A stretch of DNA of 64,000 bases from the NCBI GenBank assembly GCA_965113315.1, contig OZ220371.1, one strand, 5' to 3'. Below are positions 31,605-46,612 of the stretch, in pieces. Made by a program: the position numbers and the translations under genes. Below the pieces are notes generated by a model. That model ran no database searches and was not told where the DNA came from. It saw nothing but the letters and a program-made list of their open reading frames with translations. The first letter of the stretch is position 1; every line of letters begins with the position of its first letter. The DNA is from Podarcis vaucheri. Lineage: Eukaryota.

Positions 31605-31937
<333 letters not shown>

Positions 31938-43400: not shown

Positions 43401-44370
43401 CTTGTACAAATTCTGATTTCCTGCTTACTGTAGGCAAGGTCCGGTTCAGCCCAAGGATCCTGTCCAAATGGAAGGCAAACACTTCGCTCATGTCAAGAGG
43501 TCTCTTCATGAGGCCACAGTGCCCTTGGCTGCAAACACCTCCTTTGGCTGACCTGTTAACCATAGCAGCCCCCTCAAGTACCAGAAGTACTCCATACTGA
43601 GAAGGTGCCTCTTGTATATTCTCTATTTTGGAATCCGCCAGATGACGCATACTTAAGATATCATCTTTGCTCAGCCATGATGGTGGGCTTTCGCTGTACA
43701 TCCTGATATTGCTCTCCAGAGCACTGGGCTGAACATTTGCTCCTCTTACCAGAGGTCTCCAACGTCTCTTGTCTTTCTTGGGTGTTTCTTTCTCTTTGAA
43801 CTTCTCCTGGTGCTCCCTTGCTCTCTCTGGGACTGCTCCTGATCTCCTCTTATTCATAGAATTATTAGTCCCATGAAGTGGCTTTTGGATTAAGCTCTTC
43901 TCCTGGCCAGCGACAACCAATGGGTCCTTATTTTCATCGTGCAAAGGTACTGTTTGTTTCTTCCTTCGCTTGGGTTTCACGGTGCCTCGGATGTTGGCAG
44001 GTTTGCTGCGCTTGGACCGCAGGGTGATATACACCACATTGGGCAGTGCTGAAGTATCATTTGTTCCCATCTGGGGTCTTTCCAGATCAGAAAGCAACAA
44101 GGTGTCATCCAATGGGATTTCGAGGGAAAGAGTCTGCGCAGCATCTTGGAGATTCTGGGAATTTGCTTTCAGGGGTCTCATTCTGTGCTGTGGGACAATG
44201 TGACCTACTTGGCTGACAAGGAACCCCAGATATATCACAAAGGCTGTGCCCAACAACAAATTCCTTCTGGTCCTTGGGCACCTGCCACTCCAGAGTCTTA
44301 GCAACTGGGGTGCGCACAGAGAGCAAATGAACCAGTTTAAAATTTGGCATGTCTGATCCAGGAAGCTCAT
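43401..44370 (-). CDS. GASK1B: GASK1B/FAM198B coding exon 1: cytoplasmic tail, type II TM anchor, stem with RSKR site, start of the kinase-like domain
   Basis: [22 protein letters not shown]...[21 protein letters not shown]...[23 protein letters not shown]...[29 protein letters not shown] is recognisable as FAM198B. Ends at a CAAG|gtaatt donor; 970 nt, phase 1. Confidence 0.95.
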
Positions 44371-44492
44371 TTCTCCAGTGAATCAACATGATGAATGTAG
44401 CTTAGGAATTCACTGGTTGCCTGCTAGGATGATGATGGTGATGATGCATGCCTTCTAAATTATCGGATTTCTCCTCCTCTTTTTCCAGCTCT

Positions 44493-44541
<49 letters not shown>

Positions 44542-44644
44542 GTGTACACACACAAACACACACACACTGGAAATGCCCAAGGAATGTGAATGTTCAGTTG
44601 TAATTAATCTGACAGGCTGTCCCAACAAGCTGTTAAAATCTTAT
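44371..44644 (-). other. GASK1B: Putative GASK1B 5'UTR portion of the first coding exon, containing a dinucleotide repeat and two uAUGs
   Basis: Candidate acceptor ccctctgtggtggcag|ATAAG at 44645/44644. A candidate upstream non-coding exon donor AG|gtaaga lies at 45599/45598. The exon boundary is inferred, not proven. Confidence 0.45.
44495..44567. repeat. (GT)n followed by (CA)n
   Basis: Seen directly; self-complementary. Confidence 0.95.
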
Positions 44645-46612
44645 CTGCCACCACAGAGGGTGTGAGTTTGTTTCAGAGAATGAATGGAGTCGGCTGTGTA
44701 AACACAGTTAACTGAGTCACAGTAGGAAAAGTCTGGGAGTCCCTTCTGGGCTGGCACAGAGCTATAGAGGAGAGAATTATAAATACCATTTTATAGTCAT
44801 CATCATTCGTGGAGTTATTTTTAAACCCATGTAAATCTTTATAACACGGGAAGACACCCGAAGACACCAAAACCTGCATATATACACATATATATATGGG
44901 TATATATTATATGCACACAGAAAGGAAAAAAGATATTAAAATGCCAAATATTATGTCTATCAAATTAATAGAAACCCATGAAAATACCCTTCCAAACACA
45001 GCACAAAATGAATTTATTATCTACAATAACTGAACATGTAATAACAATTGTGAAAAGGAGACCTTTCCATGAGTCAGTGAAATCAGAGTTTCCTCTTCCC
45101 ATGCTAATGATAGGGAAGATGTTTTATAAAACCGTTTTTGCCTCCTATAATTATGCTCAGATATTGCATTAGCTGCCCTACCCTACCCCAATCAGGCATG
45201 CTTACATTATTTTATAATTCTCTTAGGCCTAACTTGAGCTAAACATACCCGCCAACTATTAAAATGCTTCCTGGCCCTGCGTTAAAGGTACATTGCTATT
45301 AATTGCATACATAAGCTGTGTCTCCAAAAATGGTCTGGATGTATTCACAAAACTACGCTACTGCAAATAACAATTGTAAGCTGTTCCTTGTTGCAGCAGA
45401 TTGGTGTGAGTGCTCGCAAGCCTTTATGTTTGTGTACACACACAGACACAAGTCCAAGAGCAACAGTTATATTGATAATAAACAAATGTGTACAAGTCTG
45501 TGAACTTTATTACACAAGCAGACACACACCCTGCAGTGGAACAAGAAATCACTTATGTTCAATTATGATAAGTTCATTATTTTGAAAAAGCATCTTACCT
45601 ACACAGCTTGTCTCTGTCTTTGTCTAGTAAAACTTCTTTTAAAAACACAAAAGAAACTGTGCTGGTCCATGCAAAAAAGAATTTAAAAATCCAAAATCCA
45701 CAGTTGGGCAGTATCTTTCTTAGGACCATCCAAGCTGTCACAAAATAGGGAGCAAGCTTTCAAGTTATCCAAACCTGTATTTCTGTGTTCAAAGTCCTGG
45801 AACACACAAGTCATACATGACTCTACAGCTCATGTTTTGGAGATTTCACTGCAAAGTCTACAGACCTTCAGAATGCTCTGACTGTACAGGGCGGTTGTTT
45901 CCAGATAACTGCTACACACTTACATGAACTTTTCGTCATTATTTTTTAAGCTATTTTAAATTCTGCATTGGAAAACCCCAGTGTGATGTCTTGTTTCCAA
46001 AAAGAACAGCCTTCTGTCTGTTTCTTTCTAACTCCTGGGAGCCCCCTAGTGCAAAAAACAGTTAAGAAATACCAAGCCTCTTTAATGAGAAGAAACATCT
46101 GGGAAGTCTTGACAATTTACAGCAGCGCACCTCTGCACATCAAACTAGGCAGTCATTTCCACTGAACTGAGTGAGGCTAGCTGTGATTCATTCATTTTAT
46201 TGGGCCATCAATGCCCCGAGAAGACTGTAATCAAAAACGCATAAGACAGAAAGAGGCAAGAGGGAGGTGGTAGTGAGGGTCACAAGGGAACAATATATGT
46301 TCAGTTCAATTCAATCCAACCTAACTTTGAAGTTGGGCACTAAGGGATTAAGCCAAAGATGGGGTAACAGCAGCCGTCCAAGTGTTGTTAGACTCCATCA
46401 GCCCAAGCCAAGCAGGGATGATGGGAGTTGTAGTCTAGCAATGCATGCGGGGCTATAGGTTCCCCATCTGTGGGTTAAAACAACAACAACCTGTTTGAGG
46501 AGAGTCCTGTAAGTTGCTGAGGCCCAAAGGAGCCCACCCACCATGACATAGCCTTTTTATTACTGATGCTCCATAATGTTGTACACAGCCCTGGGATCTT
46601 TTGATAAAGGGT

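Follow-up and report, generated by a model that had tools for sequence, protein, structure and literature searches.

A six-histidine upstream open reading frame in the GASK1B leader of the lizard Podarcis vaucheri, with likely counterparts in a bird and in mammals

The window analyzed here is a whole 64,000-nucleotide (nt) stretch of Podarcis vaucheri DNA (contig OZ220371.1 of assembly GCA_965113315.1), which contains four coding blocks of GASK1B (FAM198B). The main open reading frame (ORF) is assigned to this gene by its match to the Pfam family FAM198 (E 1e-30) and its 99% identity to GASK1B of Podarcis muralis, and its N-terminus agrees with those of the squamate orthologues. An earlier note, made from the letters of the window alone, had named the same gene and had pointed to a short upstream ORF (uORF) with six histidine codons just before its start codon, and both identifications hold. 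On the minus strand, positions 44449..44402 encode MHHHHHHPSRQPVNS followed by a stop, i.e., 15 codons in frame +2 relative to the GASK1B coding sequence (CDS). The uORF AUG, at position -79 relative to the main AUG, has G at -3 and C at +4, and the distance from the uORF's TAA to the main ATG (44370) is 31 nt, the letters, the G at -3 and the spacing being as previously read.

The exon structure of the leader (Table 1) was pieced together from assembled contigs of several runs. Contigs of runs X2 and X9 (two of four runs, from two studies) join 45599 to 44761 with GT..AG ends and reach on into a CA repeat; these runs are not recorded as RNA, and the contigs are taken as spliced because of the GT..AG joint. 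One contig of run X1, 1148 nt in length, covers 44050-44492 with the CDS and the uORF unbroken and ends in the CA repeat; by its length it stops about 28 nt beyond the exon-2 donor, while a contig of the genome-sized run X17 measures 4285 nt. Thus, the X2/X9 joint and the X1 contig together define exon 2 as 44761-43401 and make the uORF exonic, with the exon being composed of contigs lying on both sides of the CA repeat, none of which spans it. The uORF sits in the mature 5′ leader, and the intronic location of 44402-44449 that the earlier note had allowed for is not borne out. The candidate acceptor that it placed at 44644 gives way to the joint at 44761/44762 seen in X2 and X9; among the contigs examined, which miss rare forms, there is no joint at 44644 or at about 44425, and no loose end at the latter. 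Its description of the uORF start as the first AUG after the acceptor stands for exon 2, of which the histidine AUG is indeed the first, but not for the transcript, in which the covered 409 nt of exon 1 contribute eight additional AUGs. Given these eight, few ribosomes may reach the histidine AUG unless the transcript starts further downstream. Two reads of the raw RNA of run X23 could be placed, neither of them on the uORF, and run X14, from a second organism, covers neither the uORF nor any exon.

The compound (GT)n/(CA)n repeat amounts to about 70 nt within the spliced leader and is likely to be polymorphic in length. One X1 contig joins 45599 to 31876, i.e., exon 1 directly to exon 3, through a loose end of 28 nt; it omits the 1361-nt exon 2, and with it both the start codon and the N-terminal hydrophobic segment. 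In exon 1, the motif TTCAT/GTAAGT is common to the lizard (45918-45925) and the bird locus L001 described below (about 880-888), and may represent an additional splice donor that is not used or else a start-stop uORF (ATG TAA). The human rows in PMC10032668 give at least two first-exon ends. Further downstream, an 18-nt block, CTCCATTCATTCTCTGAA, is identical in the lizard (44672-44689) and bird (L001, about 1757-1774) leaders and, judging by distance, may correspond to the acceptor region of human exon 2, 224 nt 5′ of the start.

Table 1. Coordinates of the GASK1B exons and leader features in the window.
Feature	Position	Strand	Basis or remark
Non-coding exon 1, 5′ end not defined	45599..46007	-	contigs; 8 AUGs in the covered part
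Intron 1, 837 nt, GT..AG	44762..45598	-	spliced contigs
Exon 2, 1361 nt, of which 391 nt are 5′ leader	43401..44761	-	joint 44761/45599 in X2 and X9; X1 contig over 44050-44492; donor CAAG/gt at 43401
Compound (GT)n/(CA)n repeat in exon-2 leader	44495..44567	.	contigs end in it from either side; missing in the bird locus
15-codon uORF, MHHHHHHPSRQPVNS and stop	44402..44449	-	X1 and X17, from a related organism, read identically
(CAT)n microsatellite, six His codons with one CAC interruption	44429..44446	-	TRF period 3, 6.3 copies, score 31; three units in the bird locus
94-aa ORF of the second upstream AUG (-19, A at -3), overlapping the CDS out of frame	44105..44389	-	AUG shared with the bird locus
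Likely remnant of ancestral overlapping-uORF frame (+1), HHVDSLEK then TGA overlapping the main AUG	44367..44393	-	L001 peptide ends identically
GASK1B (FAM198B) coding part of exon 2	43401..44370	-	G at -3 and A at +4 of the main AUG
GASK1B exon 3	31659..31876	-	joined straight to exon 1 in one X1 contig

Runs X1 and X17 come from an organism other than that of the window-matching runs and carry identical uORF letters; hence, the frame is not an assembly slip. In this related organism up to 10 of the 409 letters of exon 1 differ with the uORF letters unchanged, the sites being too few for a test. With respect to the histidine run itself, exact matches in this 1.61 Gb genome number 48 for ATG(CAY)6, 89 for TTG(CAY)6 and 67 for AAG(CAY)6. 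His6 runs are not preferentially preceded by ATG, which occurs there at the background level for the edges of (CAT)n microsatellites. As single CAC interruptions are frequent in the two control lists (TTG or AAG with (CAY)6), the one CAC in the lizard run is no mark of codon-level selection. We regard the run as a likely repeat expansion of a microsatellite-like kind. The leader folds no better than its shuffled versions (z +1.28 in the lizard and +1.33 in the bird) and gave no alternative structures.

A second upstream AUG, overlooked in the earlier note, lies at 44389, 12 nt past the stop of the His6 uORF and in the same frame as it. The 94-aa product of its overlapping ORF belongs to no Pfam family and has no candidate relative among 5.8 billion proteins of 51-165 aa; its three weak matches are all to unrelated repetitive proteins, and we rejected it as a protein. 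In the bird locus, the -19 AUG opens a frame of only MWIH and a stop.

An AUG at the site of the histidine uORF is present in three amniote lineages and, according to published data, is translated in two mammals, namely human and rat. For the birds, a metagenome scan recovered a single GASK1B locus with upstream DNA (L001, one of 186 stretches), whose nearest stored proteins are avian and whose leader is 71% identical to that of the lizard over 318 ungapped columns. It has an AUG at -71, beginning ATG-CAT-CAT-CAT-CCT, which opens 24 codons reading MHHHP...HHVDSLEK with a TGA that overlaps the main AUG; the bird evidence consists of this one DNA locus plus back-translation. In human, the overlapping uORF c4riboseqorf111, known from Ribo-seq, is 72 nt (23 codons) in length, begins MHH, ends HVDAAEK and a stop, and is entered with a peptide listed by one mass-spectrometry study and a PhyloCSF value for mammals of -398 (PMC10032668). 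Placing the CDS start as in PMC11473369 puts its AUG at -68 and makes its stop overlap the main AUG. The catalogue labels it 'primatomorpha - young' and classes its peptide as not conserved past primatomorphs, a label that, as defined there, covers peptide similarity and primate-level structure only (PMC10032668). The overlapping uORF of rat Fam198b has 23 aa, begins MNH, ends like the human one and was detected in 17 of 30 lines, with a gene-level correlation of only 0.09 between uORF and main ORF in the heart (PMC8240307). The human and rat counterparts are already catalogued as table rows.

These mammalian translation data carry the case for the homology of the AUGs, the lizard-bird matches being weak evidence one by one because 111 of 385 arbitrary triplets of the lizard leader are likewise retained in the bird. 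The repeat leaves the alignment ambiguous, as the global alignment places the bird ATG opposite the middle of the lizard CAT run, so that a new origin of the lizard ATG is possible. We prefer homologous AUGs with a run grown by slippage because no AUG then has to be lost and regained. On this comparison of leaders, the start looks ancient. The earlier suggestion of a microsatellite that follows an ATG by chance is right with regard to the run, which behaves as a microsatellite, and probably wrong with regard to the AUG, which with its counterparts in bird, human and rat is likely not accidental. The search for leaders of other vertebrates yielded none from 43 stretches and no pattern matches in genome contigs, and none from 41 stretches in viral contigs; a region search and cluster look-ups returned bird extensions only and no further squamate leader. 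Many annotated bird proteins carry an 11-residue N-terminal extension (MLFSSCGFTRE and variants) from an in-frame AUG at -33 (L001 1981-2013), a site at which the lizard has AAG and, in the frame concerned, a TGA. Starting from another in-frame AUG, at -122 (L001 1892), the bird overlapping uORF would grow to 41 codons.

The lizard uORF resembles its mammalian counterparts in having its AUG in exon 2, some 70-80 nt 5′ of the main AUG, in a start that in human also reads MHH, and in the end of its +1 frame, where HHVDSLEK and a stop stand opposite the human HVDAAEK and a stop. It differs in its shifted frame, its 15 codons, its six histidines and its stop 31 nt early, whereas the human uORF has 23 codons and a TGA overlapping the main AUG, the rat being alike by its peptide. 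Neither the number nor the frame of the histidines is constant across these species: the N-terminal count is one in rat, two in human, three in the bird locus and six in the lizard. The spacer from the histidine run to the motif CATCATGT is 36 nt in the bird and 35 nt in the lizard, and this net 1-nt shift accounts for the lizard's shifted frame and early TAA. As a result, uORF peptide and frame are not kept in the lizard, with MHHHP alone being common to lizard and bird. Frame-shifting of the repeat among relatives, which the earlier note named as telling against its proposal, is indeed seen across amniotes, as lizard and bird differ in frame and stop. The HHVDSLEK frame of the lizard is cut off from any AUG, including that of the histidine uORF.

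The two differences between lizard and bird in the last 29 nt both leave the peptide of the ancestral +1 frame unchanged, a hint that selection there may extend beyond the start codon. Over the bird frame-0 extensions, however, 7 of the 11 kinds of change relative to L001 alter the uORF peptide and 4 are silent, by a minimal back-translation that is biased toward an open frame 0; the altering changes include two that would convert histidine codons, one to Asn and one to Tyr. Together with the negative PhyloCSF value, these 7 non-silent changes argue against selection on the peptide. Such a pattern agrees with the general rule drawn in PMC7889888, whereby uORF starts are kept while their coding parts are neutral and often frameshifted.

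We posit, as the probable but by no means assured explanation, that the start of this exonic uORF is the counterpart of that of an old amniote overlapping uORF and that the uORF acts as a peptide-independent brake on GASK1B translation. The lizard AUG would be homologous to those of bird, human and rat; an ancestral run of two to three CAT units would have grown to six by slippage; and a net loss of 1 nt would have shifted the stop, formerly at the main AUG, to a place 31 nt 5′ of it. Ribosomes initiating at -79 would read through 15 codons and terminate 12 nt short of the -19 AUG, too near the main AUG to restart well. A distance of 31 nt is short for reinitiation. Restart depends on the distance from the stop to the next start, as described in PMC5972666. 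Ribosomes scanning past the first start would meet the out-of-frame -19 AUG, whose frame overlaps the CDS, such that the remainder alone would make GASK1B, and the histidines would be passengers. For the lizard, these steps are a proposal that we consider likely.

Among known systems, the proposed brake is closest in kind to the ordinary repressive uORFs treated in PMC7889888, in which likewise the start is kept among lineages while peptide, length and frame are free. It differs from them in that the depth of the GASK1B start (mammal, bird and lizard) and the shared stop position of mammal and bird lie at the strong end, and in that the repression is putative. The layout of a short uORF followed by an out-of-frame uORF overlapping the CDS recalls the delayed reinitiation of ATF4 (PMC5972666). 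However, the first uORF of the lizard has 15 codons as opposed to 3 in ATF4, and the second AUG follows after only 12 nt, with the main AUG 19 nt beyond it; the lizard thus lacks the very short first uORF and the room to regain the ternary complex. Moreover, the pair is not conserved, the second uORF of the bird being MWIH and a stop.

The conserved stop of the other amniotes raises the alternative that the ancestral overlapping uORF was a peptide-dependent or a stop-start coupling (AUGA) element, of which the lizard version is a recently broken relic. Coupled termination-reinitiation is known to employ an AUGA arrangement (PMC5972666), and both this overlapping stop and the frame are the same in human and bird, with the rat peptide ending alike. 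The human peptide is listed by one mass-spectrometry study and is identical to that of rat at 19 of 23 positions and to that of the bird at 10 of 23 with one gap (our own counts), and HHVDSLEK with its stop is still whole in the +1 frame of the lizard. Of 152 stored GASK1B proteins, 144 have T, S, N or I as residue 2 (the other 8 being unmatched by the pattern), and A, P or another residue requiring a different +4 base is never found there among the 144; this range is compatible with retention of A at +4 and thereby of the TGA/AUGA. Against this, PhyloCSF is negative and the peptide is classed as not conserved past primatomorphs (PMC10032668), most of the bird changes are non-silent in that frame, and the HV and EK-stop portions may simply follow from the -19 AUG and from the context of the main start. 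The histidine uORF of the lizard, moreover, does not end on a stop overlapping a downstream AUG, and the shift is tolerated in two organisms; we hold this alternative to be unlikely.

Another possibility is that the conserved unit is a site for an RNA-binding protein on a large, skippable exon 2, with the AUGs and histidines as by-products. Such a site could be a NOVA-type cluster, defined by the motif YCAY, or a CA-rich splicing enhancer of the kind described by SRSF motifs. The last 90 nt of the leader hold 8 YCAY in the lizard compared with 4.5 in shuffled versions (reached by 4 of 300) and 6 in the bird compared with 2.2 (reached by 0 of 300), and exon 1 is joined to exon 3 in one contig. 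However, this enrichment is post hoc, the stretch having been chosen around the motif, and the whole lizard exon-2 leader without the CA repeat shows no YCAY enrichment (its count is reached in 35 of 300 shuffles). The cluster also lies more than 300 nt from the acceptor, mammals retain the AUG and the frame with fewer CAT units, and skipping of exon 2 is based on a single 28-nt loose end; we find this possibility rather improbable.

We give still less credence to the notion that the lizard element is functionless, a decayed AUG beside an expanded microsatellite. Its frame and stop are unlike those of the other amniotes, its pattern occurs at the background frequency of the genome and eight AUGs lie upstream of it, but its -3 context is good, both upstream AUGs are common to lizard and bird, and the uORF letters are the same in the related organism, whose exon 1 departs from that of the window at as many as 10 of 409 letters, a number of sites too small for a test.

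Lastly, the earlier note had conceived of a histidine- or metal-responsive switch. In a form of this idea adapted to the present data, lacertids would have rebuilt the old overlapping uORF into a His6 uORF plus an overlapping inhibitory uORF, in which low charged tRNA-His would stall ribosomes on the six histidine codons and change the number reaching the main AUG. The bacterial his operon leader peptide attenuator has just such a run of histidine codons in a short leader ORF, to which the lizard uORF bears that likeness. However, the lizard mRNA is eukaryotic and spliced, with neither transcription-translation coupling nor alternative hairpins, GASK1B is not a histidine synthesis gene and the run is not conserved. 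While six tandem histidine codons directly follow a well-placed exonic AUG, histidine codons open the frame in bird and human too, and histidine starvation in yeast raises ribosome occupancy at such codons (PMC5972666), a conserved sensor appears very unlikely on the sequences compared, as does this lacertid form of it, given the variable count from rat to lizard, the apparent loss of histidines in birds, the want of alternative structures, the passages on GASK1B in PMC13170776, which hold no histidine or metal link, and a literature search that at the level of listings surfaced no vertebrate precedent.

Within titles and abstract openings, with few subscription journals covered, we found no literature on the function of this uORF or on its presence in birds or lizards. 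Literature on FAM198B together with uORFs came to one general review, a main-text search for c4riboseqorf111 gave no match, and neither the supplements of PMC7889888 nor the main text of 10.1101/2025.09.16.676541 mention this uORF. For the human Ribo-seq ORF labelled 'primatomorpha - young', our comparison suggests an intact counterpart in rat and bird, which extends rather than contradicts that label. Were histidine sensing by the His6 run true, vertebrates would have a parallel to the codon-run sensing of bacteria, born from a microsatellite, but the comparison speaks against it. What the locus offers instead is a small example of uORF evolution, in which the start stays while the microsatellite expands and the frame slips. 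The lizard, bird and mammal start codons span some 300 million years.
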